The notes: generated by a model from the letters alone, not told the origin. A DNA stretch of 62,297 bases from a virus (IMGVR_UViG_3300037493_001386:1-62297), one strand, 5' to 3'; shown: positions 10,355-50,412, numbered from the stretch's first letter. Program-made: numbers and translations.

Positions 10355-10373
10355 CATTAACTACATTTGCATT

Positions 10374-10964: not shown

Positions 10965-10970
10965 AAACCT

Positions 10971-11765
10971 ATGAAGCAAGAGACACTTTCATTTATTAAT
11001 TTTATTAATCCCGATTCAGGTTTAATATTTAATGATGAGGAACACGATAAATATCCATTAAAATACTATAATGTAATTAATGGCGAAGGCATTGATGTAG
11101 ATGAAAATAAAAGTTACTATGGTTTCGTTTATTTAGGTGAGGCGGTGATCAAAATAAAAGACAATATTCAATCTATACTGCCAAAGGATTCTTACTTTTC
11201 GCATCACGGAGAATTTACTCTTTGTGGCAATTTCAAAGCGGTAATCATTGAGGTAATTACCAGTAAAGGAATATACCTAAAGGAACGATTTAAGGCAATG
11301 ACTGCCATCGGAGGTGTTGTAGAAGATACTGGAAGATTAAAATATATAGATGGATGTACTGATAGTCTATTAATACCACCAGTTAAAAAAGGTAATCCTT
11401 GTTTAAATCATTTGCATTTTCCAAAAGACATTCGACAGACACCTCATACTCACCCAAGCCATCGTGTTGGATTAGTAATTAGAGGGCAAGGAAAGTGCGT
11501 AACACCATTCGGAGATCTTCCATTAAATGAGGGATGCATATTTGTTATTAAAGAATATGACGGCCTTTTAAAAGCGGTTGGTTTGGATGGCAAAATGTAT
11601 GATGCTGGTACTCATAAATTTGATACTAATTTTAGCAGTATGGATGTGATAGCATTCCATCCTGATAGCGACTTTGGTCCTGAAGATGAATTCCATCCAA
11701 TGATTAATCGCACAATAGTAAATGGAATTTCTGCAAAAGACATTGATCAAATAAGAACTAAGTAA
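10971..11765 (+). CDS. Cupin-domain protein
   Basis: QTPHTHPSHRVGLVIRGQG and later HKF metal-binding cupin motifs. Confidence 0.75.
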   Translation: MKQETLSFINFINPDSGLIFNDEEHDKYPLKYYNVINGEGIDVDENKSYYGFVYLGEAVIKIKDNIQSILPKDSYFSHHGEFTLCGNFKAVIIEVITSKGIYLKERFKAMTAIGGVVEDTGRLKYIDGCTDSLLIPPVKKGNPCLNHLHFPKDIRQTPHTHPSHRVGLVIRGQGKCVTPFGDLPLNEGCIFVIKEYDGLLKAVGLDGKMYDAGTHKFDTNFSSMDVIAFHPDSDFGPEDEFHPMINRTIVNGISAKDIDQIRTK

Positions 11766-12940
11766 TGGGAGTAGTTAGAAAGAAAGAATACAAAGAGATT
11801 GATGTATATGAGGAAGCATTAAATCGCATCAGATATATTTACGATAGATTTGATAAAGTAGTAGTTTCATTTTCAGGAGGAAAGGATAGTACTGCCGTTT
11901 TAAATACTGCATTAATAGTTGCCAAAGAAAGAAATAGATTGCCATTGGATGTAGTATTCTTTGATGAAGAAGCAATACATCCACCAACTATTGATTATGT
12001 AAAAAGAGTAAGGGAAAATAAAGATATCAGAATGCATTGGTACTGCTTAGAATTTAAGCATCGAAATGCTTGTTCGAATGAGGAACCATTTTGGTATACT
12101 TGGGATAAAGAAAAGAAAGATTTGTGGGTTATGGAAATGCCTGAGTTTGCAATAACTGAACATCCTAAATTTATTAAGGGAATGAGTTTCCAAGAATTCT
12201 CCCCTTACCTATTTAATAGAACGGATGGCAGCGTTGCAATGCTTACTGGTATCAGAACACAAGAAAGCCTCAGAAGATACCAAGTGATCGCTAAAAAAAA
12301 GAATGATGCATTTATGAATTCAACCAGCGAGTCAGGGCAAAACCAATATAGATGCTTCCCTATTTACGATTGGAGTTCTGAGGATGTATGGTTGGCAGTT
12401 AAAAAATTTGGATGGGATTATAATACCACATACGATATATTTAATCAAACCAAATTAAATAATGATTTTCTGCATCAAAGAGTTTGTCCTCCATATGGAG
12501 AAGAACCATTAAGAGGATTATGGGTTTATGCGGAATGCTTCCCTGAGATGTGGCATAAAATGATTAGTAGAGTGCAAGGTGTTAGTACTGCTTGGAGATA
12601 TGGCAATACAGAACTATATTCTAATGCCAGTAAAAAACCTGATAATAAAACGTACAAAGAGTATTTAAATATTATACTGGATAGTTACGATTATGATAGT
12701 CAGCAAGATGTTAAGAAAACAGTTAATGGATATATCAGAAGACATCAGTCATTAACTAAGCAGAAAATACACGAGGTAGATTGCCATCCATTGAGTGGTG
12801 TTTCTTGGGAGTGGCTATGCAAAGTAACCATACGAGGAGATTTCAAAGGCAGACAGAGTAATATATTAAATACCAATGCCAATAATGTAAGGGAGAAATT
12901 AGGTATTACTTTGGAAGAAGCGGAAAGGATTTATAAATGA
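11765..12940 (+). CDS. ibrA: PAPS-reductase-family PP-loop protein, IbrA/YbdN (DUF3440)-like
   Basis: VSFSGGKDS, FFDEEA, GIRTQES, PIYDWSSEDVW, QRVCPPYG motifs. Confidence 0.85.
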   Translation: MGVVRKKEYKEIDVYEEALNRIRYIYDRFDKVVVSFSGGKDSTAVLNTALIVAKERNRLPLDVVFFDEEAIHPPTIDYVKRVRENKDIRMHWYCLEFKHRNACSNEEPFWYTWDKEKKDLWVMEMPEFAITEHPKFIKGMSFQEFSPYLFNRTDGSVAMLTGIRTQESLRRYQVIAKKKNDAFMNSTSESGQNQYRCFPIYDWSSEDVWLAVKKFGWDYNTTYDIFNQTKLNNDFLHQRVCPPYGEEPLRGLWVYAECFPEMWHKMISRVQGVSTAWRYGNTELYSNASKKPDNKTYKEYLNIILDSYDYDSQQDVKKTVNGYIRRHQSLTKQKIHEVDCHPLSGVSWEWLCKVTIRGDFKGRQSNILNTNANNVREKLGITLEEAERIYK

Positions 12941-13434
12941 AGATCAAAGAAGCAAAAATATTTATCAATAGTCAGCCGTTTACATTTGCCAAAAGTTATG
13001 CAGATACATTTCCGCACACCTATTTGCAAAGAGCAAAGACAACAGACGAAAATAAATTTGAGCAATTCATTTCATTAATACGAAAGGAAGGACTGGTATA
13101 TAATTTTTTTAAAAAGCAATACGTATATTTATTTATTGACGATTTTATTTATTGGGAAGTTGGCAGACCTATCAAGTGCATACAAGTATTAAATAGAGCC
13201 AGTATTCATTCACTAAATCAAAATAAGCAACATCTTGTTTCGCAGCATATAGCAGATACTTTATTAGCGAAACTTAATGATAGAGAAATATATTTAGATA
13301 CCTTGCTGAATAAAGAGATTAAATCCATTCAGGATATAAGGCAAATTAAGTTCCTGATGGATACCGAAAGAAGAATAAACGGAGGAGGTAAAAACATAAT
13401 TGATAACTATAAACAAGAAGTAAAATATGAATAA
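12937..13434 (+). CDS. Hypothetical protein within the IbrAB cassette
   Basis: Overlaps both neighbours; FAKSY...PHTY...YW motif; function unknown. Confidence 0.7.
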   Translation: MKIKEAKIFINSQPFTFAKSYADTFPHTYLQRAKTTDENKFEQFISLIRKEGLVYNFFKKQYVYLFIDDFIYWEVGRPIKCIQVLNRASIHSLNQNKQHLVSQHIADTLLAKLNDREIYLDTLLNKEIKSIQDIRQIKFLMDTERRINGGGKNIIDNYKQEVKYE

Positions 13435-13933
13435 GAAAGATCAGCCATTAAATGAAATCGTTTGGCGCAACAGAGAAGAACTAAAAGCAAATAATTACAA
13501 TCCTAATAAAGTTGCACCTCCTGAATTAAAACTATTAAAGGTTTCTATTATTGAAGATGGATGGACACAACCTATTGTAATAAATCCTGATATGACAATT
13601 GTTGATGGATTCCATAGATGGACGGTTTCGGGACATAAAGAAATATACCAGTTAACAGATGGACTTGTTCCAACCGTTATGATCAAACCGAAAGACATCA
13701 ACCAGCAACAGATGGCAACCATTCGACACAATCGTGCTCGAGGTACTCACGGAGTATTGGAGATGAGTAATATCGTAAATGATATGGTTAAGAATGGATT
13801 AAGTGGCGAAGAGATTATGAGTAGATTAATGATGGAAAAGGAAGAAGTAGTTAGATTATTATTTAGAGCGGGTATTCCAAAGAGTGAAGTCTTCAAAGAG
13901 AAAGATTTTAGCAAGGCTTGGTCACCTAAATAA
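13427..13933 (+). CDS. ibrB: IbrB/YbdM-like ParB/Srx-fold protein
   Basis: ANNYNPNKVAPPELKLL..SI.EDGWTQPIV, IVDGFHR, ATIRHNRARG.H. Confidence 0.9.
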   Translation: MNKKDQPLNEIVWRNREELKANNYNPNKVAPPELKLLKVSIIEDGWTQPIVINPDMTIVDGFHRWTVSGHKEIYQLTDGLVPTVMIKPKDINQQQMATIRHNRARGTHGVLEMSNIVNDMVKNGLSGEEIMSRLMMEKEEVVRLLFRAGIPKSEVFKEKDFSKAWSPK

Positions 13934-13953
13934 CAACATTAAAACAACGAAAA

Positions 13954-14259
13954 ATGGCTGGTAAAGGACAAGTAGAACCACGTTGGAAAAAAGGCGAAAG
14001 TGGTAATCCAAATGGAAGGCCTCGTAAGTTGCCTGAGTTGGACAAATTACTTGCTGATGTACTTGGCGAGGAGAAGGATGGAATAACGGCTGGAGAGGTC
14101 ATATTAAAGGCAATAAGGGCAAAGGCAGCAAAGGGCGATGTAAGAGCAGCCGAACTATTATTAGATAGAGCATATGGCAAACCAAAACAAAGTATTGAAA
14201 ACAATATATCATCACTTGAGCCAATGGTTATTATCAGGACCGAGAGAAAAGAAATGTAA
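13954..14259 (+). CDS. terS: Terminase small subunit (DUF5681-like)
   Basis: WKKGESGNPNGRP, GDVRAAELLLDRAYGKP; directly upstream of TerL. Confidence 0.8.
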   Translation: MAGKGQVEPRWKKGESGNPNGRPRKLPELDKLLADVLGEEKDGITAGEVILKAIRAKAAKGDVRAAELLLDRAYGKPKQSIENNISSLEPMVIIRTERKEM

Positions 14260-14284
14260 TATTATACCAGTTACATTTTGATTA

Positions 14285-15559
14285 ATGGCTTATACATTAA
14301 CAGAAACACAAACAATTGCATATGATTATGCCACCAATGGAGATAAAAGAGTTATCTTATTTGGTGGCGCAATTCGTGGCGGTAAAACATATTGGTTGCT
14401 GCTAACATTAACCTCATTATGTTTGGCATATCCAAATAGCAGATGGGTTGTAATTAGAAAAACACTACCTGATCTAAAACGTACAACATTCCCAACATTT
14501 AAATCTATAATGAATGATGGTGTTGGACAATACATAAAGAACTGGAATAGGGATAATGTAGTTACATTTAATAACAACAGCCAATTAATATTTATGGGCG
14601 AGAGTTACGATGATGATAAAGAATTAAATAGGTTTAGGGGATTAGAAATAAATGGTGCTGGATTAGATGAAGTCAACGAGTTACAAGAAGTAACCTTTTA
14701 CAAAGTTCAGGAACGTATTGGTTCTTGGAACAAAGCAGAAGGTCAGCCACCAATAATATGCTTGGCTACTTGCAATCCATCACAAAATTGGGTGAAGACA
14801 TTAATCTATGAAAGGTATAAGTATGGAACGCTTCCAAACAAATGGGCATTCATACCATCAAAGATTACCGACAATCCATATATACCTATTGAGTATCTTG
14901 AATCATTAAAAGAATTGCCACCTATTCAATATGCAAGATTTGTTGAAGGTGATTGGGATGTACTGGATAATGTAGTTAATCCATTCTTGTACGAATGGAA
15001 TGATGAAAAACATATTGATGATAGCATAGAACACAATCCAAATCTACCAACATTTATTAGTGTTGACTTTAATGTTAATCCATTATGCGCATTAATCATT
15101 CAACACGTTGGCAGCGACACACGAATACTGGATGAGATTAAAATAGAAAAGGGCTCAATAGAAGCATTCTGCGATGCCGTTGAGAATTATAATATACCAA
15201 GTGGCTTGATGCGAATAACTGGAGATGCGATGGGCAAAGGCAGTTCAATACAACAACGTGATAACTCTTCTGCATATACTCAAATCAAACGCAAATTTAA
15301 ATTGTCTGATAGTCAAATTATGATACCAGCCAATCCAAGAATATCTAATAGTCGGATAGATTCCAATTTAGCATTAAAAAAATTAAATATTAAAGTTAAT
15401 TCAATCAGGTGCAAAGGATTTATATTTGATGCAAAGCAAGTGCAATGCGATGCGGAAGGTTCGTTAATAAAAACAAATAGGAAAAACCTATCGGAACGTG
15501 CCGATTTTTTAGATTGTTTTCGTTACTTTGTCAATACTATTTTAAAAAGATACCTATGA
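14285..15559 (+). CDS. terL: Terminase large subunit
   Basis: GGAIRGGKT, LDEVNE Walker B, TCNP, DNPY, SVDFN nuclease motif, D.LDC.RY. Confidence 0.95.
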   Translation: MAYTLTETQTIAYDYATNGDKRVILFGGAIRGGKTYWLLLTLTSLCLAYPNSRWVVIRKTLPDLKRTTFPTFKSIMNDGVGQYIKNWNRDNVVTFNNNSQLIFMGESYDDDKELNRFRGLEINGAGLDEVNELQEVTFYKVQERIGSWNKAEGQPPIICLATCNPSQNWVKTLIYERYKYGTLPNKWAFIPSKITDNPYIPIEYLESLKELPPIQYARFVEGDWDVLDNVVNPFLYEWNDEKHIDDSIEHNPNLPTFISVDFNVNPLCALIIQHVGSDTRILDEIKIEKGSIEAFCDAVENYNIPSGLMRITGDAMGKGSSIQQRDNSSAYTQIKRKFKLSDSQIMIPANPRISNSRIDSNLALKKLNIKVNSIRCKGFIFDAKQVQCDAEGSLIKTNRKNLSERADFLDCFRYFVNTILKRYL

Positions 15560-24483: not shown

Positions 24484-25436
24484 TGGAATTAGAAATTAAC
24501 ACTAACGATATTGCCACATCTTCTTCGGAGGGTGTGGTACTATTTGCATTTGGCAAGACTGCATACTATCAAGCAGCATATAATCTTGCATATTCAATTA
24601 AGTACCATTCACCATCAGTTAAGATTGCCCTATTTGTTGAAGACATCAATAAATGCAATAATTCTACTGGAGACATCAACACATATGTTGATTCAATAAA
24701 TCAAATCGAAAGTTCCGACCTTTATGTTAATGGGAAATTAGACCCAGCAATGTTAAAGGTGTCTATATATAAGTATCTGCCATTTAAAATTAATCTGTAT
24801 TTAGATGTTGATGCGGTATGCCTTAAAAACATTCAGCCATTAATAGATGATTTGATTAAAACAAAAAGGCACTACATCAGCCATTGCTTGGGTTATCATA
24901 CTATTGATTTAGGAAGAGAAATCCAATCAATGGTTTGGGCTTGGGCGGATGATATTTGGGAGCATTTTAAATTAGATCCTGATACAATACTACCATCTAT
25001 AAATAGCAGCATTCAATTCATTAAAAAATGTAAAAAGTCTAAAGACTTATTTGGAGTTCTTAGAATACTTTACACTACAAATCAATTGCCATTAAAAAAA
25101 TTAAAAAATAAATGGGGAGGTGGTCAACCTGATGAGTTGTATATGGATGTTGCTTTGGCAATGACAAAGTATGACCCATCTTATAAAAATGGAAATGTTA
25201 TTAGTGGAAGTAAATCGCAAAGTGGTTTCATTCACTTTGCATCAGTTCGTGGTTTGTCATTTCAGGAAGTAACGGATAACTATTATTTCCAATCATACTA
25301 TGGTGGTCGTAATTATACATCAAGATTCTATACTGAATGGCTTGAGAGACTTTTAAGAGTAATGATGAAGAAAGAAAACAAAACACATCAATTTCATATA
25401 GACCGAATCATTGGTAATAAATACGTGAACAAATGA
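24483..25436 (+). CDS. GT-A fold glycosyltransferase
   Basis: LAYSIK, LYLDVDAVCL (DxD), INSS and PDE motifs; homolog at 59340. Confidence 0.75.
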   Translation: MELEINTNDIATSSSEGVVLFAFGKTAYYQAAYNLAYSIKYHSPSVKIALFVEDINKCNNSTGDINTYVDSINQIESSDLYVNGKLDPAMLKVSIYKYLPFKINLYLDVDAVCLKNIQPLIDDLIKTKRHYISHCLGYHTIDLGREIQSMVWAWADDIWEHFKLDPDTILPSINSSIQFIKKCKKSKDLFGVLRILYTTNQLPLKKLKNKWGGGQPDELYMDVALAMTKYDPSYKNGNVISGSKSQSGFIHFASVRGLSFQEVTDNYYFQSYYGGRNYTSRFYTEWLERLLRVMMKKENKTHQFHIDRIIGNKYVNK

Positions 25437-26035
25437 AAAATACTACTACCAAAAAACCGAAAGTAAAATCAAATAAAACTGATTATGATTTGCCAGTTGT
25501 AGAAATTGTTACAACAGAAACATTTAAAGAAGTTGCTCGTCACGAATGGAACTCAGAAGATGAAGTTGGTCAGTTCTTGGGATCACTTATTAAAATGTCT
25601 AAGTATAATACTGCTCTTGAAATTGGAGTATTTGAAGGCGAAACATCGCAGCATTTAATTAATGCTATTCCAAAAGGAGGTCAATATATTGGCATTGACA
25701 TCAATGATTATCGTACTGAAAAAACAAAATCATTAATGGCAGAGGGTGGCAAGTCAATTGATTTTATTCTTGGCAATTCACACGATGAATTATTAAAGTT
25801 ACCAAAGAATCATTTTGATTTGATATTTGTTGATGCCGACCATTCTTGGGTATCAGTATTACCTGAATTTAAACTTGTAGAAAAACTGGTAAGTACTGGA
25901 GGTGTAATTGTGTATCACGATACAATACATATTTCAGCACCTAAAAAACTTGTTGAGTATGCGAGATACCGAAACTATAAAACAACTACCTTAAACACTC
26001 CCGAAGGACGTGGATTGTCAATATTACATAAATGA
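25433..26035 (+). CDS. Class I SAM-dependent methyltransferase (Methyltransf_24-like)
   Basis: LEIGVFEG, GID, FDLIFVDADH, GGVIVYHD. Confidence 0.9.
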   Translation: MKNTTTKKPKVKSNKTDYDLPVVEIVTTETFKEVARHEWNSEDEVGQFLGSLIKMSKYNTALEIGVFEGETSQHLINAIPKGGQYIGIDINDYRTEKTKSLMAEGGKSIDFILGNSHDELLKLPKNHFDLIFVDADHSWVSVLPEFKLVEKLVSTGGVIVYHDTIHISAPKKLVEYARYRNYKTTTLNTPEGRGLSILHK

Positions 26036-33497: not shown

Positions 33498-34322
33498 ATG
33501 GCTGGAATTAAAATTACCGAATTGCCCGTTTCGGGAAGTCTTGAAAAAACAGATTTAACTTATGTTGTAGATGTAAGTACAGATACATCAAAACAAGCCA
33601 CAATACAAAATGTTATTGATGCAGTTGACCAAGTAGGTATTACTGATGTAGATGGCTATGCAGTTTTACAAGCAATTGATTCATTTGGGTTAAAAGTTAA
33701 AAGTGATAATGCAGCATTTCAAGGCATTTATTATAATGAAGATAATTCTGCTAACTATACAGATAATTCTTTAATTGCAAGAAAGGATGCTCCAAAAGTT
33801 TTGCAGTTTGCAAATACACCTTGCGATGAGGGAGAAAATCCAACAAGGGTAGGAGATATTTATATAGATTCTTTGAACAACAAAGTATACTTGGCATCAA
33901 ACATTAATACTTGTACCGATTGGGTAAAAATAGAATCTATTGAAAGTAGCACTTATAACCCATCGGTAATTCTACCATCAGTAAATCAGATAATAAGTTT
34001 TATAGGGGCTGCTATTTATACAAGAGTAGGAGATATAGTGTCTTGTAAAATACGATTATCATTAACATTTGGAGGTGTTTCGGGACATAATTATAATTTC
34101 TATGTTAGTTTACCAATACCTCCAACAAATCCATTTGGGATTAATACACAAGTTTTAGGTAGTGTAATACCTTTTGGGAATGTAACATTATGGCATAAAG
34201 TAAATCATACATCAATAATTGCAAATGTGCTTAATGATTATGCTGAAATTGATGTAGAGGTTGATAATTCTATGAATGGGGTTTGCCAATTTGTACTTGA
34301 CTTTTCATACCTTGTTCAGTAA
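33498..34322 (+). CDS. Fibre/spike protein
   Basis: N-terminal KITELP...VVD...K.T motif; YTRVGDIV...SLPIP fibre-tip-like motif. Confidence 0.7.
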   Translation: MAGIKITELPVSGSLEKTDLTYVVDVSTDTSKQATIQNVIDAVDQVGITDVDGYAVLQAIDSFGLKVKSDNAAFQGIYYNEDNSANYTDNSLIARKDAPKVLQFANTPCDEGENPTRVGDIYIDSLNNKVYLASNINTCTDWVKIESIESSTYNPSVILPSVNQIISFIGAAIYTRVGDIVSCKIRLSLTFGGVSGHNYNFYVSLPIPPTNPFGINTQVLGSVIPFGNVTLWHKVNHTSIIANVLNDYAEIDVEVDNSMNGVCQFVLDFSYLVQ

Positions 34323-34780
34323 TGAATATTAGTAAGACTGGAATCCAATTAATTAAAGACTTTGAGGGTCTGCGATTAAATGCCTATAAGTGTTCGGCTG
34401 GTGTTGCAACAATTGGCTATGGAAGTTGCTTCTATCCTGATAAATCCAATGTAAAAATGGGAGATGTTTTGCGAGATAAAAATGAAGCAGAGTTATTATT
34501 AATTAATACTCTTAAAGACTACGATATATATGTTAGCAAGTACACTAAATCAGTTAATTTAACCCAATACCAATTTGATGCATTGGTGTCTTTTGCTTTT
34601 AATGTTGGATTAGGTAACCTTAGCAAGTCAACTTTGCTAAAAATGGTACTTAGCAACCCCAATGATAAAAATATACCAGCAGAGTTCGCCAAATGGAATA
34701 AAGGAGGTGGTAAAGTATTAACTGGATTAGTAAAAAGAAGGGCAAAAGAAGCCGAACTATACTTTAAGGTATTCGTATAG
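34322..34780 (+). CDS. Endolysin, GH24 lysozyme
   Basis: IKDFEGLRL.AY.C.AGV.TIGYG, QFDALVSFAFNVG, GLVKRRAKE. Confidence 0.95.
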   Translation: MNISKTGIQLIKDFEGLRLNAYKCSAGVATIGYGSCFYPDKSNVKMGDVLRDKNEAELLLINTLKDYDIYVSKYTKSVNLTQYQFDALVSFAFNVGLGNLSKSTLLKMVLSNPNDKNIPAEFAKWNKGGGKVLTGLVKRRAKEAELYFKVFV

Positions 34781-34785
34781 TTAAT

Positions 34786-34995
34786 ATGGCTATCGATCCA
34801 AAGAAATTCAAACAAATAGCAGATTTACTTATGATATATTGGCACTTAACAATAGGATCGCTGGTGTCTGTTATTGGATTTTGGCTGTTCTTTAGTAAGA
34901 AGATAGATAAGGAATCATTTGCATACATTATTGGAGCAGTAGTTACTTTAAAGTGGGTCTGGAAACCATCAGATAAAGGAGGTAACAATGCATAA
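34786..34995 (+). CDS. Putative holin
   Basis: 69 aa with two hydrophobic segments, next to the endolysin. Confidence 0.6.
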   Translation: MAIDPKKFKQIADLLMIYWHLTIGSLVSVIGFWLFFSKKIDKESFAYIIGAVVTLKWVWKPSDKGGNNA

Positions 34996-35497
34996 TGAAT
35001 TAAGAGATACAATAGTAACACATACATTTGATAGTATTTGTGTTATTGGTGCATCTTGTAAGTTGCACAATCATATTCATCACCAAATTGTCAATAATAA
35101 CCACGAGCTTTTACTGGTAAATACTATTATTGATGATTCAACAATTTATATTTACGAAAATCAATGGGGTCAGGTACTTTATCTTGACGAACAAATCACT
35201 AAATTTGATCCTATAATTGAGATTAATTCTAATTCATTGCCAGTAATACCATTTCGTGCATCAGATACCATTCAACCTTGTGATGCTAAGTGGTTAAATA
35301 AAGGTAAAATGTTAGAATTAAAAGCTTATTCTATACAAAAATGTAATAATAAGATGGCTGAAGACTACTTATATTGTGATTTATCTAATTCAATTGTAAT
35401 GATGCTGATGTTATTTGCTACATCTGTATGGTTATACAATAGCATATTTTATTGGGCGGAAATGATTTCCAAAATAAATAAAATAGTAAAGGATTAA
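34988..35497 (+). CDS. Membrane-anchored hypothetical protein
   Basis: His-rich C...CKLHNHIHH N-terminal patch; C-terminal transmembrane segment. Confidence 0.6.
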   Translation: MHNELRDTIVTHTFDSICVIGASCKLHNHIHHQIVNNNHELLLVNTIIDDSTIYIYENQWGQVLYLDEQITKFDPIIEINSNSLPVIPFRASDTIQPCDAKWLNKGKMLELKAYSIQKCNNKMAEDYLYCDLSNSIVMMLMLFATSVWLYNSIFYWAEMISKINKIVKD

Positions 35498-35500
35498 AAA

Positions 35501-36070
35501 ATGTCTACTCAATATATCTTAGCCAATTCAATTGACTTGTTGTATGTAGTATCGGACTATGAAGGAAATATTGTAAGGTCTAATGATTTATTCAAAGAGT
35601 ATAGCAGCCATATAAAACCCAAGAAAGTTAGTGATATAATTAGTGATGATACTGAAATGGACGATTATGTTATTTCAGTAAAGAAAGCAATTGAATTATC
35701 TCCTAACCCAGTTCGTATTTATGCAAGAACTAAACAAAAGAATAGTGGATTAAGATGGAATTTGTGGAACTGCTTTGCAATACTTGGATCACTTCATTTT
35801 GTTGGTTTTCAAATTACTGATGTTACCAGTATAACTTCTCACGAACACGAAAAACAAAAGCAGTTACTGGAGGAATTTAGATTTATGCTTTCTCACGAGT
35901 TAAGGCAACCATTGACATCAGTTGCTGGAGTGGTAAAGTTACTTCTTGACAAAGGCAGTAATATTTCAGATGCCGAACAAAATGAATTATTAAATATGGT
36001 TGATGATTCAATGAAACGATTAGATGATTCAATTCATTTACTTGTAAAAAAGGCAACACGGCAGTTATGA
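35501..36070 (+). CDS. PAS-like plus HisKA (DHp) protein without an ATPase domain
   Basis: PAS/PAC-like N-terminus (D.EGNIVRSN...G..RW...ITD); H-box FMLSHELRQPLTS; ORF ends after the second DHp helix. Confidence 0.85.
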   Translation: MSTQYILANSIDLLYVVSDYEGNIVRSNDLFKEYSSHIKPKKVSDIISDDTEMDDYVISVKKAIELSPNPVRIYARTKQKNSGLRWNLWNCFAILGSLHFVGFQITDVTSITSHEHEKQKQLLEEFRFMLSHELRQPLTSVAGVVKLLLDKGSNISDAEQNELLNMVDDSMKRLDDSIHLLVKKATRQL

Positions 36071-36267
36071 AAGATTGCACTTTACCGATGGATGAGGAAG
36101 AAGCAGACGAGAGACTTCTTATTGTGGTAAAGCATTATGTTGTTGAAAGAGAGATGCCAATTTATGTTGCAAAGAATGTTTTACGAAGTAACCTAAGAGA
36201 CAAATCTTGCTTTGAAATAAAATGGGAAAAGTTCATTAAATTAATTGGTGGTTATGCAGCAAAATAA
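36067..36267 (+). CDS. Small hypothetical protein
   Basis: ATGA overlap with the PAS-HisKA gene. Confidence 0.6.
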   Translation: MKDCTLPMDEEEADERLLIVVKHYVVEREMPIYVAKNVLRSNLRDKSCFEIKWEKFIKLIGGYAAK

Positions 36268-36931
36268 TTTTGAGTCAATAGATAAAGTATTAGGTATTGT
36301 TGTTGCAATCGTACTGGTATTAATTTTAATGCATACTTGCGGAACAAATGGTCAACTGAATATTGATCATAAGAAAATGAAAGATCAAATAGAAAACTAT
36401 AAAGTTCAGCATCTTTCCGACTCAAGTAAATTAATAAGTCAGGCAATTAATTACCAAAATGAAATTGATTCAAAAGATATAGCATTAAAAAAATTAAATA
36501 TCAGGAATCCAAAAGAGGTTGTTAAAATAAAATATAAGACAATTGTTCAAACTGAAATCAAATTAAGTGATCCAATAGTAATTGACAGTTCGAACTACAT
36601 AAAGTTGCCAGTAGTCTTTTCAGATTACAATGATTGGTGGTCCATAGATGGAAGCATTGATTCATCAGGTGTGCTTAAAATAGACTCCATAGTATCTACT
36701 GGTACTTTGACCTATTCCGTTGGTGATACTCTCAGGAATGGTCTATTTAATAGGTTATTGAGGAAATATGATAGTGTTATCCGTCTGCATATTGATAACC
36801 CTACAATGTCAATATCAAATCTCTCTAATATATATATGAATAAAACACCTAAGTGGTTTCAAACTACTGCATTCAAAGTAGGTGTTGGTGTTTTGATAGG
36901 CATCGGCCTCACCAGCCAAATAGCAAAATAG
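36254..36931 (+). CDS. Spanin-like protein
   Basis: N-terminal hydrophobic helix ending at Cys (LMHTC), coiled coil, C-terminal hydrophobic helix; last gene of the lysis cassette. Confidence 0.55.
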   Translation: MQQNNFESIDKVLGIVVAIVLVLILMHTCGTNGQLNIDHKKMKDQIENYKVQHLSDSSKLISQAINYQNEIDSKDIALKKLNIRNPKEVVKIKYKTIVQTEIKLSDPIVIDSSNYIKLPVVFSDYNDWWSIDGSIDSSGVLKIDSIVSTGTLTYSVGDTLRNGLFNRLLRKYDSVIRLHIDNPTMSISNLSNIYMNKTPKWFQTTAFKVGVGVLIGIGLTSQIAK

Positions 36932-37861: not shown

Positions 37862-38572
37862 ATGTTACCAACACTAAACGCTCCCATCGGTGGAGACTCA
37901 AACTACAGCAACAAGATAGCACCAGTAGGTATGCATCTTGCAAGAATCTATCAAATCATTGACTTAGGAACTACAGAGCAAACTGGTCAATTTGGTGGAA
38001 AAAAAAGAAAGGTTCAAATCCTTTTTGAACTACCATTAGAGACTGCGGTCTTTGACCCTGAAAAGGGTGAGCAACCATTCTACGCACGTAATATGTATAC
38101 CTTGTCAATGCACGAGAAAAGCACTCTAAGAAAAGATGTTCACTCTATTGAGGGTAAGACATTGACTGAGGATGAAGCTAAGAAGTACAATGTGTTTTCT
38201 TTAATTGGTAGAGAATGTATGGTCAACATCATTCACAAACAAAGTGGTGAAAAGACCTTCGCTAACATTCAAACTATCACACCACTACCTAAAGGAATGG
38301 TTTGTCCACCAGCTGTGAACCCACCACTTATATTCTCAACTCAACAACCTGATATGGTTGTGTTCAGGACACTACCTGAGTTCGTACAAGATAAGATTAA
38401 GTTGAGTGATGAATTTATAGCATACATGAATGCTGAAATGTCAGCTAACTACCCAGCTAATAAACCAGCACCAACACCACTACCTACATTCACAATTGAG
38501 AAAGGTGTTAACCCAAGTGATTTCGATTGGATGCAAGGTGAACAAGAAGACCCTACTAAATTACCATTTTAA
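37862..38572 (+). CDS. SSB-like protein
   Basis: Homolog of 1772-2479. Confidence 0.65.
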   Translation: MLPTLNAPIGGDSNYSNKIAPVGMHLARIYQIIDLGTTEQTGQFGGKKRKVQILFELPLETAVFDPEKGEQPFYARNMYTLSMHEKSTLRKDVHSIEGKTLTEDEAKKYNVFSLIGRECMVNIIHKQSGEKTFANIQTITPLPKGMVCPPAVNPPLIFSTQQPDMVVFRTLPEFVQDKIKLSDEFIAYMNAEMSANYPANKPAPTPLPTFTIEKGVNPSDFDWMQGEQEDPTKLPF

Positions 38573-40894: not shown

Positions 40895-41067
40895 TGGAAA
40901 TTGAAGAAAATGAAAACAAAATAATGGTTGAAATAACTCTTATTGAAAAAGATATAAGAAGTATTAAACTTTGGGAAAAACTTGTAAAAGAGCTTGATGT
41001 ATTAAAAGACAATAACTATACAGCAAGAATACTTTTTGATTATATAGAAAAGCATTATGGAATTTAA
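40891..41067 (+). CDS. Small hypothetical protein (58 aa, below the ORF-track cutoff)
   Basis: ATGA overlap with the VRR-NUC stop; open frame MMEIEENENK...HYGI. Confidence 0.55.
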   Translation: MMEIEENENKIMVEITLIEKDIRSIKLWEKLVKELDVLKDNNYTARILFDYIEKHYGI

Positions 41068-41317
41068 AGAAATCAAAGACAAAGAAAAATACTTAAAAAA
41101 GAATTATCCATTTGATGATGTGCCAAAACTAACTGAGATAAAGCATTGTGTTCATTGTGGTCAAAACTTTTTAGTTGGAGATTATAAAGTACATCTTGAG
41201 TATAATTCTTTTGCAAAGAAAAAAATAGAATACATTGTCTGTCCTTATGCACCTGATTGTAGTGGTAGTGTAATTGATTGGTTTACTTTAGAAGATGAAG
41301 ATTTAGATATTGATTAA
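41057..41317 (+). CDS. Zinc-ribbon protein (B only)
   Basis: CVHC...CPYAPDC. Confidence 0.7.
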   Translation: MEFKEIKDKEKYLKKNYPFDDVPKLTEIKHCVHCGQNFLVGDYKVHLEYNSFAKKKIEYIVCPYAPDCSGSVIDWFTLEDEDLDID

Positions 41318-41329
41318 TCAATAAAAAAA

Positions 41330-41409
41330 TTGACACGATGTCAATGGGGTGGGCGGTTGTTACAAATACAAAATAATTTAAGGGAGTAATTGAACTGCCC
41401 ACTTTTTTT
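41330..41409 (+). promoter_or_regulatory. Inverted repeats / long-loop hairpin upstream of the helicase
   Basis: TTGACA-cga-TGTCAA; GTGGGCGGTT...AACTGCCCAC then T7. Confidence 0.45.
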
Positions 41410-41432
41410 AACTCACAATAAAAATAACTACT

Positions 41433-42800
41433 ATGAACGAGTACGAAAAATTTTTAGAACAAAAAAAACATTCAATTGGTAATTTTGGATTTGATGCTAA
41501 TTACATTCCTGATATAGCATTTGACTTTCAAAAGTATATAATTGAGAAAGCAATTAAAAAAGGACGTATTGCAATATTTGCTGATACTGGATTAGGTAAG
41601 ACATTAATTCAATTATCAATTGCAAATAATATTATAAGAGAAACAAATAAGAAAGTATTAATCTTAACACCATTAGCAGTTGCATTTCAATTTATTTTAG
41701 AAGCAGAAAAGTTAGGTATTGATGACATTGAGTATTCAAAGGATGGTAAGCATACTAAGAAAATAGTAATCTGCAATTATGAGAGATTACATTACTTTGA
41801 TTCTAATGATTTTATTGGTGTTATCTTAGATGAAAGTTCAATCTTAAAAAACTTTGATGGTGCTATTAAAAATCAGGTAACAACATTTGTAAAAAAGATT
41901 CCTTATAGATTTTTATCTACTGCTACACCATCACCTAATGACTTTATTGAATTAGGTACAAGTAGTGAGGCATTAGGATATATGGGTTATATGGATATGT
42001 TAGGAAAGTTTTTTAAAAACAATCAAAACTCAGTTGATTCTAATAATAGAAACATTGGTGAAAAGTTTTACTTAAAACCCCACGCTGAAAAAGATTTCTT
42101 TGCATGGGTTAATCAATGGTCAATTATGGTTAAGATGCCGTCTGACATAGGATTTTCAAATGAAAGATATAATCTACCTGAGTTAATAGTTAATAAGCAT
42201 ATTGTAGAGAATCAATCAATGATTGATGCTTATGGTCAAATTCAATTATTTACACCAGTAGCAAAGTCAATGACTGAGGTAAGACACGAACAAAAGAAAA
42301 CAGAATCAATTAGATGTGAGAAAGCAATTGAATTAGCTAATGGTAAAACAAGTGTATACTGGTGCAATACTAATAATGAAAGCAGCATCTTAAAAAGTTT
42401 AGATAAGGAAGCAGTAGAAATTATAGGTAGTCAGTCAATAGAACGTAAAGAAGAGATTCTATTAGCATTTGCAAATGGTGATATTAAAAGATTAATCACT
42501 AAAGCTAAGATGACATCTATGGGTCTTAACTGGCAGCATTGTAATCACTCTGTATTTTTTCCTACATGGTCTTATGAGCAATATTATCAAGCTATAAGAA
42601 GGTTTTGGAGATTTGGTCAAAAGAATGATGTTACTATTGACATGGTTATTTCAGATGGTCAAACAAGGGTAATAGAAGCATTACAACAAAAAACAAAAAA
42701 GGCAATTGAATTACATGAGAATCTAACAAAAAATGTAAATAGTACATTTACAAACATCACAAAAGAGTTTAACCAGCAAATAATCAAACCTAAATTTTAA
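41433..42800 (+). CDS. SNF2-like superfamily 2 helicase (B only)
   Basis: ADTGLGKT, ILDESS, TATP, GLNWQ, QAIRRFWRFGQ. Confidence 0.9.
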   Translation: MNEYEKFLEQKKHSIGNFGFDANYIPDIAFDFQKYIIEKAIKKGRIAIFADTGLGKTLIQLSIANNIIRETNKKVLILTPLAVAFQFILEAEKLGIDDIEYSKDGKHTKKIVICNYERLHYFDSNDFIGVILDESSILKNFDGAIKNQVTTFVKKIPYRFLSTATPSPNDFIELGTSSEALGYMGYMDMLGKFFKNNQNSVDSNNRNIGEKFYLKPHAEKDFFAWVNQWSIMVKMPSDIGFSNERYNLPELIVNKHIVENQSMIDAYGQIQLFTPVAKSMTEVRHEQKKTESIRCEKAIELANGKTSVYWCNTNNESSILKSLDKEAVEIIGSQSIERKEEILLAFANGDIKRLITKAKMTSMGLNWQHCNHSVFFPTWSYEQYYQAIRRFWRFGQKNDVTIDMVISDGQTRVIEALQQKTKKAIELHENLTKNVNSTFTNITKEFNQQIIKPKF

Positions 42801-42805
42801 TAACT

Positions 42806-43819
42806 ATGAACAACAAAGTAAAAGACCAAATTGTAACAGACAGATACGCTATGTATAATAGTGATTGTATGTTAGTCATGCCAACTATTGAAGATGAATC
42901 AATAGACCTAAGTGTATATAGTCCACCATTTGCAGGATTATATAACTACTCAAGTTCAGAAAATGACTTTAGTAATTGTGAAAGCAAAGAACAATTTTTA
43001 GAGCAGTATGAATTTCTTATTAAAGAAGTTGCAAGGGTAACTAAGAAAGGTAGAATAACTGCAGTTCATTGTACTGATGTATTTGATAATACTTGTAGAC
43101 TTTGGGATTTTCCAAATGAGATTATTAGACTGCATACTAAATATGGTTTTGAATATCGTAATAGAATTACAATTTGGAAAGAGCCACTAAAAGTTAGAAT
43201 GCGTACAATGGTACAATCATTAATGCATAAATTCATAGTAGAAGATTCTACAAAGTGTTTTACTGCTATGCCTGACTATGTATTAATATTTACTAAGAAA
43301 GGAGATAATCAAGTCCCAGTTACACATGAGTTTGGAATTAATCATTATGCTGGTGAAATTCCAATCTTACCAAATATTTTAAGAGCATGGAATAATGCTA
43401 ATAAATCAGATTTAAATGAAGAGCAACTATGGGTGCATCTAAATAATATAAATGAAGATGGTAAGATAACTAAGTTGAATCATTATATATGGCAGCGTTA
43501 CGCATCAAGTGTATGGGATGACATTAGAATTGATAATGTACTACCATTTAGAGACTCTAAAGAAGAGGATGATGAAAAGCACGTACACCCACTTCAATTA
43601 GACGTTATTGATAGGATAGTTGAATTATACTCAAATCCTAATGAAGTTGTATTAACTCCTTTTATGGGTGTAGGTAGTGAGGTGTTTAGTCCAGTTTCAA
43701 TGGGTCGTAAGGCAATTGGTATAGAGTTAAAAGATTCTTACTTCAAACAAGCTAAGTTAAACCTACAAGAAGCAGATAATAGATTTAAAAAAGAAAGTAA
43801 ATTTTTGAAATTATTTTAG
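42806..43819 (+). CDS. Beta-class N4-C/N6-A DNA methyltransferase (B only)
   Basis: SIDLSVYSPPF (motif IV) precedes HVHP...VLTPFMGVGS...GIEL (motif I). Confidence 0.85.
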   Translation: MNNKVKDQIVTDRYAMYNSDCMLVMPTIEDESIDLSVYSPPFAGLYNYSSSENDFSNCESKEQFLEQYEFLIKEVARVTKKGRITAVHCTDVFDNTCRLWDFPNEIIRLHTKYGFEYRNRITIWKEPLKVRMRTMVQSLMHKFIVEDSTKCFTAMPDYVLIFTKKGDNQVPVTHEFGINHYAGEIPILPNILRAWNNANKSDLNEEQLWVHLNNINEDGKITKLNHYIWQRYASSVWDDIRIDNVLPFRDSKEEDDEKHVHPLQLDVIDRIVELYSNPNEVVLTPFMGVGSEVFSPVSMGRKAIGIELKDSYFKQAKLNLQEADNRFKKESKFLKLF

Positions 43820-47919: not shown

Positions 47920-48295
47920 TAACCTACTACTTATACCTTGTGCAATTGAATCAGTATCTACAAGAAGAGATAAAACTCTCAAGGTAGTGATAGGTACACA
48001 AGAACTTTCACCATCAAAGGCTGCTGAGTTATTCAATCAATGGACATCAGGTGTAGGTGTTATGGCATTCAAAGGTGAATCATTCAACTACAATGATGAA
48101 GAGTTACTAAAGTCAATCAAGATAGATGCTGAAGAGATGGGTTCTAAGACACCCAGTCAAAGGTTGAGGTCGTGCCTTTATGTTTTGTTTGAACGCAACC
48201 CTGAAGGATACAATGACTTCAATAGTTACTATTCAGCTATGATAGAAAAGTTTATAGAGATGGTCAAGAAACGAATTGACACCTACCAACTTTAA
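47912..48295 (+). CDS. Conserved hypothetical protein
   Basis: Homolog of 9971. Confidence 0.8.
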   Translation: MDSNLLLIPCAIESVSTRRDKTLKVVIGTQELSPSKAAELFNQWTSGVGVMAFKGESFNYNDEELLKSIKIDAEEMGSKTPSQRLRSCLYVLFERNPEGYNDFNSYYSAMIEKFIEMVKKRIDTYQL

Positions 48296-48300
48296 TACCT

Positions 48301-48687
48301 ATGAACAAGACTCACACAATAGAAGATGGTAGTGGTAATAGATTAATTGCCACACATAACGATGCAATCATTAACCTATCACTATTACTCACCGATGGTA
48401 AAAAGAGAGCCATAGGTCAAATTGATAAAGCTACAAGAACATTAAGACTAATCAGGTCAAGGTCTAAACATCTTATGAGAGTCAATAACTCTTATGGAAT
48501 CAACTACTACCTGATAGAGAATGGTAAGGCATTTGACAAAGTTCAGATAGTAGACGAACAAAATAGCTGGTTAGTATCTAAAGACTATCTTATAGAACAT
48601 TGCACAACGATGAACTTTAAGTCTCAAGGATTTGAACTACAGAAATTCATATCACTTGACAAACTAAATTCTTTCGTAAATTCGTAG
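48301..48687 (+). CDS. Hypothetical protein occupying the slot of the A IbrAB cassette
   Basis: 128-aa ORF between the conserved gene and TerS. Confidence 0.7.
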   Translation: MNKTHTIEDGSGNRLIATHNDAIINLSLLLTDGKKRAIGQIDKATRTLRLIRSRSKHLMRVNNSYGINYYLIENGKAFDKVQIVDEQNSWLVSKDYLIEHCTTMNFKSQGFELQKFISLDKLNSFVNS

Positions 48688-48688
48688 T

Positions 48689-49135
48689 ATGGAATCACAA
48701 GAAGAAGTTAACAAAGGTGGTAGACCAACTGAGTATAAAGAGATATTCAATGAACAAGTCTTTGAAATGGCTCTACTTGGTCTTTCAGATGTTCAGATGT
48801 CTAACATAATTGGAATATCAGAGGTGACATTTAATGCATGGAAACACAAACACCCTGAGTTTCTTAAGTCGTTAACGCAAGGGAAAGAGAATGCAGACGG
48901 CAAAGTAGCTAAGGCAATGTACAAACGTGCATTAGGTTTGACCATCATTGAAGAGGCATTGACTAAGGATGGGCAAATAGTACAACTAAGAAAAGAACTA
49001 CCACCTGATACACCAGCAGCTAAACATTGGTTAGCTAATCGTCAACGTAAGCTATGGGCAAACAATGGTGAAAGCACAATGTATACTACTGAGCCATTGA
49101 TTATCATAAGGACTGAGGGAGATAAAGATGAATGA
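48689..49135 (+). CDS. terS: Terminase small subunit (HTH type)
   Basis: GGRPTEY, HTH-like GLSDVQMS..IGISEVTF..W...HPEF, PPDT.AA..WL.NR; upstream of TerL. Confidence 0.85.
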   Translation: MESQEEVNKGGRPTEYKEIFNEQVFEMALLGLSDVQMSNIIGISEVTFNAWKHKHPEFLKSLTQGKENADGKVAKAMYKRALGLTIIEEALTKDGQIVQLRKELPPDTPAAKHWLANRQRKLWANNGESTMYTTEPLIIIRTEGDKDE

Positions 49136-50412
49136 GTTTCAAGTTAACCAAACGTCAAACAACTGCATACGACTTAGCAGTTAATGGAGTTAAGAAAGTA
49201 ATAGTATTTGGTGGCGCAATTAGAGGTGGTAAGACGTACTGGTTACTCTTAACCCTATCTTCACTTTGTTTACTCTATCCTAAGTCAAGATGGGTAATCA
49301 TTCGTAAGACATTACCTGACTTAAAGAGGACTACCTTTCCTTCATTCAGTTCAATTATCAATGATGGTTTGAGTGAATACATTAGTAGTTGGAATCGTGA
49401 GACCAATGTAGTTACATTTACTAATGGTAGTGTACTAATCTTCATGGCTGAATCCTTTGACGATGACAAAGACTTAAATAGGTTTAGAGGGTTAGAAATT
49501 AATGGTGCTGGGTTAGATGAGGTAAACGAACTACAAGAAGCAACCTTCTACAAGGTACAAGAAAGGATAGGTAGTTGGAATAAGGCTAATGGTCAACCAC
49601 CCATTGTACTACTTGCTACTTGCAACCCAGCTAACAACTGGGTCAAGTCAGTTATCTATGAAAGGTGGAGAAGTAATACATTACCTGATAAGTGGTCTTA
49701 CATCAATTCACGCATAACAGATAACCCATACATCAGTCAAGAATACCTTGAGTCACTTAAAGAACTACCACCAATTCAATATGCAAGATTTGTTGAAGGT
49801 GACTGGGATGTAATGGACGATGTCTCTAATCCATTCCTTTATGCTTGGGACGATGAAAGACACATAGACGATTCACTAAGTCTTAATCCTAACCTACCAG
49901 TATTTATCTCAGTCGATTTTAATATTAACCCATTATCAGCATTAATCATTCAGCAACACACCACTAAAGGTTGTTCAGTCATTGGTGAGATAAACATTGA
50001 TAAGGGTAGCATTGATGCTTTCTGTGATTATGTTGAGGGGTTGAATTTACCACGTGGTCTACTTAGAATAACTGGAGATGCAATGGGTAGTGGTAGAAGT
50101 ATTCAACAAAGAGATAATAGTTCAGCATATACCCAAATCAAAAGAAGGTTACACCTTGCAGACTCACAGATAATAATACCAGCTAACCCTACGCACTACA
50201 ATAGTCGTATTGATTGCAATAACGCATTAACACGACTTGAGATAAGAGTTAACTCAGTTAAGTGTAAAGGATTGGTCTACGATGCTAAACAAGTACAATG
50301 TAATGCTGATGGTGGTATAATCAAATCAAACAGAAAGAATTTATCTGAAAGAGCAGATTTCTTAGATTGTTTTCGTTATTTTGTAAATTCAATTTTAAAA
50401 AGATACCTATGA
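49132..50412 (+). CDS. terL: Terminase large subunit
   Basis: Homolog of 14285. Confidence 0.95.
   Translation: MSFKLTKRQTTAYDLAVNGVKKVIVFGGAIRGGKTYWLLLTLSSLCLLYPKSRWVIIRKTLPDLKRTTFPSFSSIINDGLSEYISSWNRETNVVTFTNGSVLIFMAESFDDDKDLNRFRGLEINGAGLDEVNELQEATFYKVQERIGSWNKANGQPPIVLLATCNPANNWVKSVIYERWRSNTLPDKWSYINSRITDNPYISQEYLESLKELPPIQYARFVEGDWDVMDDVSNPFLYAWDDERHIDDSLSLNPNLPVFISVDFNINPLSALIIQQHTTKGCSVIGEINIDKGSIDAFCDYVEGLNLPRGLLRITGDAMGSGRSIQQRDNSSAYTQIKRRLHLADSQIIIPANPTHYNSRIDCNNALTRLEIRVNSVKCKGLVYDAKQVQCNADGGIIKSNRKNLSERADFLDCFRYFVNSILKRYL

Follow-up and report, generated by a model that had tools for sequence, protein, structure and literature searches.

An ATPase-less PAS-DHp protein encoded in the lysis gene block of a clade of uncultured phages

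The lysis gene block of an uncultured virus, represented by the IMG/VR record IMGVR_UViG_3300037493_001386:1-62297 (referred to as the window, meaning the whole analysed stretch of 62,297 nucleotides), encodes a protein of 189 residues (PAS-DHp; positions 35501-36070, + strand) in which a PAS-fold sensor domain is followed by a DHp helical hairpin with an intact histidine-containing H-box, and in which the ATP-binding domain typical of histidine kinases is missing. Judged from its sequence, the protein is a member of the HisKA family and not a histidine kinase, and sequence comparison assigns its gene to the core late genes shared by a large clade of phages that are uncultured and have genomes of about 37 kb. 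The function tentatively favoured here is that of a PAS-gated phosphoryl acceptor or decoy, which, late in infection, may act on a two-component pathway of the host.

Domain composition and fold of the PAS-DHp protein

HisKA (PF00512) was identified as the sole significant Pfam domain of the protein, covering residues 129-178 with 39.0 bits (cut-off 26.9; E 8.4e-10), while none of the PAS-clan models of Pfam matched the 189 residues at E<=0.1. The AlphaFold2 model, for which an alignment of 59 family members served as input, was obtained with a mean predicted local distance difference test (pLDDT) value of 81.1 and revealed a PAS-type sheet of five strands (residues 14-18, 23-27, 71-78, 84-94 and 97-104) with flanking helices, followed by two long helices (residues 109-154 and 157-188), the protein terminating in this model one residue past the second DHp helix. 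Structural comparison with the PDB using Foldseek placed LOV-histidine-kinase structures on top (8a52, 4gcz and relatives, E 1.8e-7 to 1e-6), and isolated PAS domains, among them the fatty-acid-binding PAS domain of RpfR (6dgj) and ARNT PAS-B, matched the model with template modelling scores of 0.70-0.80 on the target. In addition, a PDB profile search identified the PAS kinase ThkA (3a0r, E 1.8e-5), with an alignment that covers the last PAS strand and continues across the DHp part. Model, Foldseek comparison and ThkA profile match therefore lead to the assignment of a PAS-fold sensor domain (residues 14-104; 35540-35812, + strand), which is joined by a linker helix to a DHp helical hairpin (together residues 109-188; 35825-36064, + strand), whereby the H-box SHELRQPLTS (residues 131-140; 35891-35920, + strand) contains the phospho-acceptor residue His132. 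The preliminary description, which a model had made from the sequence alone, had recognised a PAS-like plus HisKA protein of 189 residues with an intact H-box, and both the HisKA match and the modelled PAS fold agree with it. The protein is cytoplasmic and very probably a dimer.

ThkA (3a0r), YF1 (4gcz) and SB2F1 (8a52) resemble the phage protein in their PAS core, the coiled-coil linker and the mid-helix position of the histidine, but they possess an ATP-binding domain of their own and autophosphorylate, whereas the phage protein ends after the DHp hairpin. NCBIfam revealed just partial similarities to the PAS kinases PnpS, PhoR and HrmK, all of them far under the cut-off, and the Hpt and Spo0B-type models of Pfam did not match at E<=0.1, a result which says nothing on the mode in which the protein works.

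Absence of ATPase and receiver domains

The preliminary description had stated that the genome holds neither a HATPase domain nor a receiver gene, and this was borne out in the window and in five complete relatives. Neither HATPase_c nor Response_reg was identified by Pfam in 63 open reading frames (ORFs) of the window or, at E<=1, by family searches in all six frames over its entire length, and both were likewise missing from 5/5 complete relatives of 36.7-38.5 kb (CheckV 100% complete, two with terminal repeats). As a control of the search, both families were detected in 14/14 reference genomes.

Family size, conservation and selection

In the protein collection, 145 clusters matched at E<=0.001, and the 120 clusters listed are almost all 186-193 residues long, share 52-93% identity and possess HisKA as their sole domain. 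Searching IMG/VR with the single protein revealed 295 viral stretches, and with the alignment as query at least 409. Such a search of phage databases for proteins consisting of PAS and HisKA only had been proposed in the preliminary description, which had named two findings that would speak against a phage device, namely homologues that are solely full-length host kinases and relaxed selection on this copy. Instead, the homologues were identified as phage proteins of about 188 residues, and the ratio of non-synonymous to synonymous substitution rates (dN/dS) was found to be low, with a median of 0.074 (range 0-0.17) for the entire gene, 0.065 for the PAS half and 0.090 for the DHp half (Nei-Gojobori method; 77 genes cut from their loci, 695 pairs with 0.1<dS<1.5).

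H132, E133, R135, Q136, P137, T139 and G143 are identical in all 77 locus genes (77/77) and S140 in 75/77, while H132, E133 and P137 were found in 120/120 and Q136 in 119/120 aligned sequences, these comprising the window protein and 119 database clusters. The H-box residues stay fixed while overall identity drops to 52-55%, and within the PAS domain N28, Y34, S36, H37, R72, Y74, Q79, K80 and H99 are the invariant polar residues.

Among 1536 candidates for longer homologues none was significant at E<=0.001, which constitutes weak evidence, and the nearest cellular proteins were found to resemble the phage protein in the DHp part only, at 30-40% identity and in no case over the full length. Full-length matches in genome collections were obtained for just three short contigs of metagenome-assembled genomes (MAGs; 2.7-4.7 kb, discordant taxonomy), which are probably phage fragments. 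Within 50,697 phage records there was no DNA match to the region, and none of these cultured phages encodes a relative: tblastn of PAS-DHp against these records returned two weak Listeria-phage matches only (38% of the query, E 8e-3), and tblastn with two distant family members returned no match.

Relation to the class of HisKA proteins without HATPase

A profile search against 1.84 billion representatives yielded 2672 matches at E<=0.001, 41 of them at <=1e-10 and 18 at <=1e-30. The best 150 of the 2672 matches were considered, and 149 were analysed, as P0021, a close family member, was left out. Among the matches listed, 57 are short (<=230 residues) and 92 are longer; 61 of the longer proteins end <=25 residues past the DHp match, 28 possess a tail of >=100 residues and three lie in between. 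Pfam analysis of 30 of the 61 tailless proteins identified HATPase_c in none (0/30) and revealed multi-PAS-HisKA proteins, one with an N-terminal receiver, while among 16 of the 28 tailed proteins HATPase_c was present in 15, with a receiver instead in the remaining one. At three genomic loci of tailless relatives the tails amount to 3-6 residues. A GAF-HisKA protein of 238 residues is encoded inside a complete Chitinophagaceae chromosome (L093:2491-3207) and a PAS-PAS-HisKA protein of 389 residues in Filimonas zeae (L091:2095-3264), neither of the ATPase-less genes being adjoined by a receiver or ATPase gene within these 6-kb loci, and a further ATPase-less example of 707 residues is annotated in a Cytophagales MAG. 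These ATPase-less ends are not artefacts of contig ends. In two further relatives (P0162 and P0171) the ATPase-less PAS-DHp part is joined to a receiver, yielding the arrangements REC-PAS-DHp and PAS-DHp-REC, in agreement with the idea of a class participating in phosphorelays.

By its domain composition the phage protein is assigned to the class 'HisKA, no HATPase', with which it shares the N-terminal PAS or GAF sensor, the C-terminal HisKA domain with its histidine and the absence of HATPase. According to Galperin 2018 (PMC5847659), no member of this class had been studied, and roles as phospho-acceptor, in phosphotransfer or as phosphatase were proposed. Proteins of this kind were also noted in Archaeoglobus (PMC1183210), and P2CS labels them 'possible incomplete histidine kinase'. 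As far as these sources describe it, the published class is cellular and mainly archaeal, whereas the phage form is a minimal one with a single PAS domain, is encoded in a lysis block and is paired with p66, a small protein encoded directly downstream. The earlier statement that no lysis module of this form has been described can hence be kept in part: within the literature searched, which lay mostly outside subscription journals, no description of a phage lysis block with a PAS-DHp protein was found, a result that is provisional, but sensor plus HisKA proteins without HATPase are already catalogued in cells. Among viral proteins, BFVD contains PAS/histidine kinase-like proteins of 165-182 residues from uncultured phages (A0A6J5KZZ3, A0A8D9CBR8 and A0A345MNJ9; structural E 1.8e-5 to 3.7e-4), and the profiles of PHROGs 10912, 857 and 20458, which span 468-970 positions, match residues 112-178 only.

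H-box chemistry

Some natural kinases carry Gln at position His+4 of the H-box. For the HisKA kinase CrdS, it was reported (PMC3510030) that the acidic residue following the histidine is needed for kinase activity and Asn375, located at His+4, for phosphatase activity, and that variant N375Q has no measurable phosphatase activity while variant N375T is partly active. A preprint (bioRxiv 10.64898/2026.02.27.708494) restates this rule of the acidic residue and His+4 in general terms. In the phage family the H-box reads His-Glu-x-x-Gln, and Thr or Asn was never found at His+4 (Gln in 77/77 locus genes and 119/120 aligned sequences). As His and Glu are kept and Thr and Asn are absent, this pattern fits phosphoryl transfer onto the histidine better than hydrolysis, and a canonical phosphatase function is disfavoured by Gln at His+4, being the least favoured option among those which involve phosphoryl chemistry. 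The 61 ATPase-less longer relatives possess the histidine in 61/61 cases, Pro at His+5 in 61/61 and Glu or Asp at His+1 in 31/61; at His+4 they carry R (19), K (12), A (12), G (8), S (4), Q (4) or H (2), and never Thr or Asn. The conserved positions of the phage family include the surface just below the histidine, which is the docking site of the regulator in complexes of histidine kinases and response regulators.

Organisation of the lysis gene block

The source sequence is an IMG/VR virus record, which had been regarded as an apparently complete genome. This view has to be revised: positions 37130-62297 duplicate positions 1-27446 at 71-82% identity (94.7% for the first 170 bases), and the record comprises about 1.7 genome lengths, in which one ~37-kb genome is represented by two diverged variants in head-to-tail arrangement. 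These may have been fused during assembly from two strains that occur together, or may represent a genuine concatemer of mixed origin. The lysis region is present as a single copy within the record.

All genes of the block are encoded on the + strand, are tightly packed with overlaps and lie directly upstream of the early genes, and the three closely packed genes which had been placed between endolysin/holin and the spanin-like gene were all recovered as ORFs. The block starts with the endolysin (34322-34780), a phage lysozyme family glycoside hydrolase (Pfam Phage_lysozyme E 6.5e-39; PHROG 7 endolysin E 1.3e-50), in which a transmembrane-like segment was looked for and none was seen. It is followed by a holin-like small membrane protein of 69 residues (34786-34995) with one strong and one weaker hydrophobic helix, the former at residues 14-32, and a charged C-terminus. 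Whilst this protein matched no Pfam, PHROG or NCBIfam family, homologues gave sub-threshold matches to a two-transmembrane-helix Pfam model (E 2e-4 and 8e-4), and size, topology and position suggest a holin role. Next, a transmembrane protein of 169 residues is encoded (34988-35497), whose N-terminal part contains Cys and His residues and which possesses just one hydrophobic helix, located at the C-terminus (residues 136-154), without match in Pfam, PHROG or NCBIfam. Its previous designation as a His-rich membrane protein goes too far: it contains seven His residues besides this single helix, and the richness in His is not kept in the homologues, which are 132-169 residues long and in which conservation is limited to DT(I) motifs and to the Trp-containing C-terminal helix. 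Downstream of the PAS-DHp gene follow the gene for p66 (36067-36267) and that for the spanin-like protein (225 or 228 residues; start at 36254 or 36245, end at 36931). The stop codon of PAS-DHp and the start codon of p66 share an ATGA overlap; this clean end of the reading frame had been pointed out before and was found in 69/77 relatives as well. A scan for promoters and terminators between 33400 and 38000 revealed no excess over shuffled sequences (20 promoter-like sites vs 26.5±5.9, one terminator-like site vs 1.7), and none of the five block proteins was matched by PADLOC.

The spanin-like protein possesses a hydrophobic helix at each end. In the 77 loci, 63 homologous ORFs were identified, 60 of which combine the N-terminal helix, a Cys residue and the C-terminal helix; the Cys after the N-terminal helix is present in 62/63 and a hydrophobic C-terminal segment in 63/63. 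This is the layout of a unimolecular spanin of the T1 gp11 type, and such a role is suggested for the protein on these grounds. The residues up to the Cys (IHTC, IATC, FKSC) do not form a canonical lipobox. The window's protein itself matched no Pfam or PHROG family, its neighbours in the Atlas are unnamed viral clusters, and two of its relatives gave sub-threshold DUF6549 matches.

An ORF encoding 45-90 residues directly follows the PAS-DHp gene in 76/76 loci. In p66, the residues D14, R16, L17, Y24, E27, M30 and P31 are invariant, and AlphaFold2 predicted a three-helix protein (pLDDT 74) whose fold found no Foldseek match at E<=0.001 (best E 2.7) and a best VIA Z of 5.0, which is helical-bundle noise. 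Co-folding with the neighbouring proteins, as had been proposed in the preliminary description, gave weak support for p66: together with the PAS-DHp dimer it scored 0.60 (runs 0.51, 0.60 and 0.64) vs 0.01 for the best control, with >=40% of contacts agreeing between runs and a partner pLDDT of >=68. The mark applied was reached by 58/80 solved complexes and 2/110 mismatched pairs, and at the mark scores of <=0.60 were seen for just seven of those 80 complexes, yet for both mismatches. Considering the weak co-fold together with the invariable adjacency and the translational coupling, p66 likely binds PAS-DHp.

Conservation of gene order

Through the PAS-DHp protein 80 loci were fetched, in which neighbouring genes were sought by tblastn. 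The endolysin was found upstream in 79/80 loci, the exception ending at a contig end, while the counts amount to 74 loci for p66, 75 for the spanin-like gene, 64 for the holin-like gene and 41 for the 169-residue gene, the lower ones resulting from divergence and contig ends. Inspection of ORFs identified the same order (endolysin, holin-like, transmembrane protein, PAS-DHp, p66, spanin-like) at 55-60% identity, and an ORF of 132-169 residues with a C-terminal helix lies upstream of PAS-DHp in 75/77 loci. In a 66-68%-identity lineage an extra ORF of 266 residues with a signal-like N-terminus and without Pfam match is located between the endolysin and the holin-like gene (L039:4452-5252, also in L040).

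As an independent anchor, loci were fetched through the conserved downstream early gene p236 (37862-38572 in the window). Among 59 p236 loci with >=3.3 kb of upstream sequence, 40 contain both endolysin and PAS-DHp and 19 contain neither; in the latter, p236 is 39-43% identical and the neighbourhood is a differing, divergently transcribed one. The linkage to lysis genes, a test of which had been proposed in the preliminary description, is thus conserved in its order, with the caveat that all of it stems from one collinear clade, in which the order is inherited with the whole genome, and it therefore does not constitute independent evidence of a lysis role.

A distant lineage, L182 (protein P0279), whose p236 is 57% identical to that of the window, encodes a PAS-DHp protein of 180 residues (profile match E~4e-12, obtained for the cluster representative P0154) in the order holin-like, transmembrane protein, PAS-DHp and lipoprotein-like protein with a C-terminal transmembrane helix (984-1984). 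Here the H-box keeps the His residue without Glu and Pro, and p66 is missing. The L182 PAS-DHp stop overlaps the start of the last gene of this order, whose product of 153 residues possesses a lipobox-like signal (LMSSC) and the C-terminal transmembrane helix, and is by its sequence features a clearer candidate for a unimolecular spanin than the window's own protein. P0279 gave this one locus; the distant members P0133 and P0147 gave nothing in viral contigs, and p236 of L182, when used as query, returned its own contig only.

A model for PAS-DHp function and known systems

Since the protein is not capable of self-phosphorylation and the phage possesses neither a kinase domain nor a receiver, the invariant H-box must work together with host proteins. 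Building on the observed fold, missing domains, conservation, selection and gene order, the model presented here adds conjectures on the partner in the host, on the direction in which phosphoryl groups flow and on the purpose. The model assumes that one gene block would give rise to PAS-DHp, p66 and the endolysin, holin-like and spanin-like proteins. His132 would then accept a phosphoryl group either by back-transfer, with a response regulator of the host as donor, or in trans from the ATPase domain of a host kinase, with a cue sensed by the PAS domain controlling phosphoryl acceptance. As a consequence, the host two-component signal would be drained or diverted late in infection, as the lysis proteins accumulate, which may serve to silence an envelope-stress or defence response in the lysis phase or to feed the state of the host into lysis timing. 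The initial idea of a phage device which acts on a host two-component pathway or on lysis timing is hence retained as far as a functional device with an intact H-box is concerned, while a canonical phosphatase version is disfavoured.

By analogy, PAS-DHp may work like a DHp-based phosphotransfer or decoy module. In Spo0B, ChpT and the isolated DHp domain of EnvZ, the histidine of a dimeric hairpin exchanges phosphoryl groups with receivers without an ATPase of its own; these systems possess no PAS sensor and belong to cellular relays, whereas the phage protein shows no sequence membership in them. EnvZ without its catalytic domain reportedly retains phosphatase activity (Zhu et al. 2000). The plasmid-encoded sensor-domain decoys pXO1-118 and pXO2-61 of Bacillus anthracis interfere with a host relay, but they consist of the sensor domain only, whereas the phage protein possesses a DHp domain. 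Small inhibitors that dock on the DHp domain of kinases are known in Sda and KipI, of which the helical Sda offers a possible analogy to p66, although no sequence or fold similarity was detected for p66. With respect to lysis, RI and RIII are antiholins of phage T4, and VqmA of phage VP882 is a PAS receptor which triggers lysis; none of them is known to possess a HisKA/DHp domain, and VqmA is a transcription factor encoded outside the lysis cassette. RedE of Myxococcus xanthus offers a precedent: according to PMC2755868, this kinase-like protein does not autophosphorylate, takes phosphate from one regulator with its conserved His and antagonises another regulator. It differs from the phage protein as its phosphatase activity needs ADP, hence a nucleotide-binding part is kept, and as it is cellular and encoded beside its partners.

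Weighing of alternative explanations

Several observations weigh against a phosphoryl acceptor or decoy that targets a host pathway. Among the 57 short relatives, four of which are unaligned at the H-box columns, the His is present in 53/53 aligned proteins, but Glu or Asp at His+1 in only 30/53, and Pro is sometimes lost; the loss of the acidic residue and of Pro, which includes the same-placed L182 gene, suggests that the role may not need canonical phosphoryl chemistry. Likewise, the conserved surface of helix α1 could equally be the docking site of p66. The comparisons of MAG contigs, terminase and p236 identified no host, and since cellular proteins share just the DHp part with PAS-DHp, at 30-40% identity, the similarity does not point to a particular cognate pathway of the host. 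Finally, the place in the lysis block is no weaker a pointer to a role in lysis than to interference with host signalling. The main rival to the acceptor reading, possible though doubtful, assumes an antiholin-like regulator: PAS-DHp together with p66 would bind the holin-like or the 169-residue protein from the cytoplasmic side, whereby a PAS-sensed cue would delay or trigger hole formation and the His, instead of attacking a host pathway, would be an input site, or would matter for structure or as a residue sensitive to pH. Extra genes between the holin and spanin genes of phages often encode lysis regulators, as is the case for RI/RIII of T4 and LysA/LysB of P2. Such a regulator would account for the fixed gene order with the endolysin in 79/80 loci, which is held down to 55% identity, for the p236 loci, which have endolysin and PAS-DHp together (40/59) or neither (19/59), for the L182 gene, which stays between the holin-like and spanin-like genes despite its lost Glu and Pro, and for the packed, overlapping genes without promoter- or terminator-like excess. 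It is countered by the fact that a single collinear clade accounts for this linkage, another architecture being found in the 19 loci that lack the gene, and that the invariance of H132, E133 and P137 is predicted by a phosphoryl-transfer site and not by a mere binding surface. A combination of both ideas, which appears rather unlikely, holds that PAS-DHp and p66 form a signal-gated phosphoryl acceptor wired into the lysis programme, which sets the firing of the holin. Here, the PAS domain would read a metabolic or envelope cue of the host, His132 would exchange phosphate with a host regulator or kinase, and the phosphorylation state would be relayed via p66 and the tail-anchored membrane protein to the holin.

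A stand-alone phosphatase, in which the DHp dimer would dephosphorylate a host regulator, is regarded as unlikely; the DHp hairpin is intact and the acidic E133 lies beside the His, and the possibility was raised for the class by Galperin et al. (PMC5847659), but Gln occupies His+4 in 77/77 and 119/120 sequences, the corresponding CrdS variant N375Q has no measurable activity (PMC3510030), and Thr or Asn at His+4 was found in 0/61 of the ATPase-less longer relatives. Natural kinases with Gln at His+4 nevertheless leave this reading some probability. It is quite improbable that the protein acts as a dominant-negative partner which forms a heterodimer with a host kinase via its DHp or PAS domain and blocks autophosphorylation. 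DHp is a dimerisation module and the ATPase is absent, PAS domains mediate dimerisation too, and RetS acts on GacS by blocking the kinase through heterodimer formation; heterodimerisation, however, usually needs close similarity, while no full-length cellular likeness was found, and blocking would not need an invariant His-Glu pair. Very unlikely is a regulator of phage genes, according to which PAS-DHp and p66, the latter possibly binding DNA or polymerase, would adjust transcription at the boundary of late and early genes of the circular genome. This would agree with p66 following in 76/76 loci, translationally coupled and with a weak co-fold, and with a block directly upstream of the early genes, but p66 revealed no significant match to a DNA-binding fold (best Foldseek E 2.7, VIA Z 5.0), and L182 keeps PAS-DHp without p66. 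A recently captured, decaying host-kinase fragment without function, for which the missing ATPase domain is the sole support, was rejected and is hardly conceivable, given the dN/dS of 0.074, the constant length in at least 409 viral stretches, the coupled clean stop in 69/77 relatives, the failure to find a close full-length kinase, and the presence of the same architecture in complete bacterial genomes.

Irrespective of which explanation applies, an abundant phage clade possesses, among its core genes, that of a minimal ATPase-less sensor-HisKA protein which is strongly selected, sits in a fixed and interpretable context and is accompanied by a small candidate partner. This offers a compact genetic system (one gene, one invariant His, one neighbour) for asking what the class does. 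If a host pathway is the target, two-component signalling would join the host processes that are manipulated late by lytic phages, while a holin as target would make the protein a new kind of lysis regulator. Should the phosphoryl acceptor be wired into lysis, it would represent the first lysis clock made from two-component parts and the first function assigned to the class 'HisKA, no HATPase'.

Clues to the host and other genes of the window

The terminase is similar to those of Flavobacterium, Polaribacter and Bacteroides phages at 27-31% only. A host within the Bacteroidota is a guess drawn from this weak similarity and from the taxa of the ATPase-less cellular relatives. The bins of the matching MAG contigs (Bacteriovoracaceae, Bacteroidota and Phycisphaerales) were considered as host evidence and rejected owing to the short contigs and their discordant taxonomy.

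The p236 gene (PHROG 862), which is present in both variants (37862-38572 and 1772-2479), encodes a protein with about 30% identity to putative single-stranded DNA- or DNA-binding proteins of assorted marine phages, and the gene that comes after it shows a weak PD-(D/E)XK-like (DUF3799) match, the copy of the first variant being located at 3724-4332 (E 0.001); the sequence of both genes suggests a recombination module. Further differences between the two variants were identified. An insertion of ~2.9 kb in the second variant (40895-43808), absent near 5450 of the first, encodes a DEAD/SNF2-type helicase (41433-42800) and an N6/N4 DNA methylase (42806-43819). An island of ~4 kb (10354-14309) is confined to the first variant, its counterpart in the second (48295-49156) comprising just ~0.9 kb; the island encodes a ParB N-terminal-domain protein (10374-10964), a PAPS-reductase plus DUF3440 protein (11765-12940) and a DUF5681 protein, and is possibly a DNA-modification module. 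Elsewhere in the window, a RadC-like JAB-domain protein (7122-7607) adjoins the DnaB helicase, and an O-methyltransferase (25433-26035) is encoded amid large structural genes.

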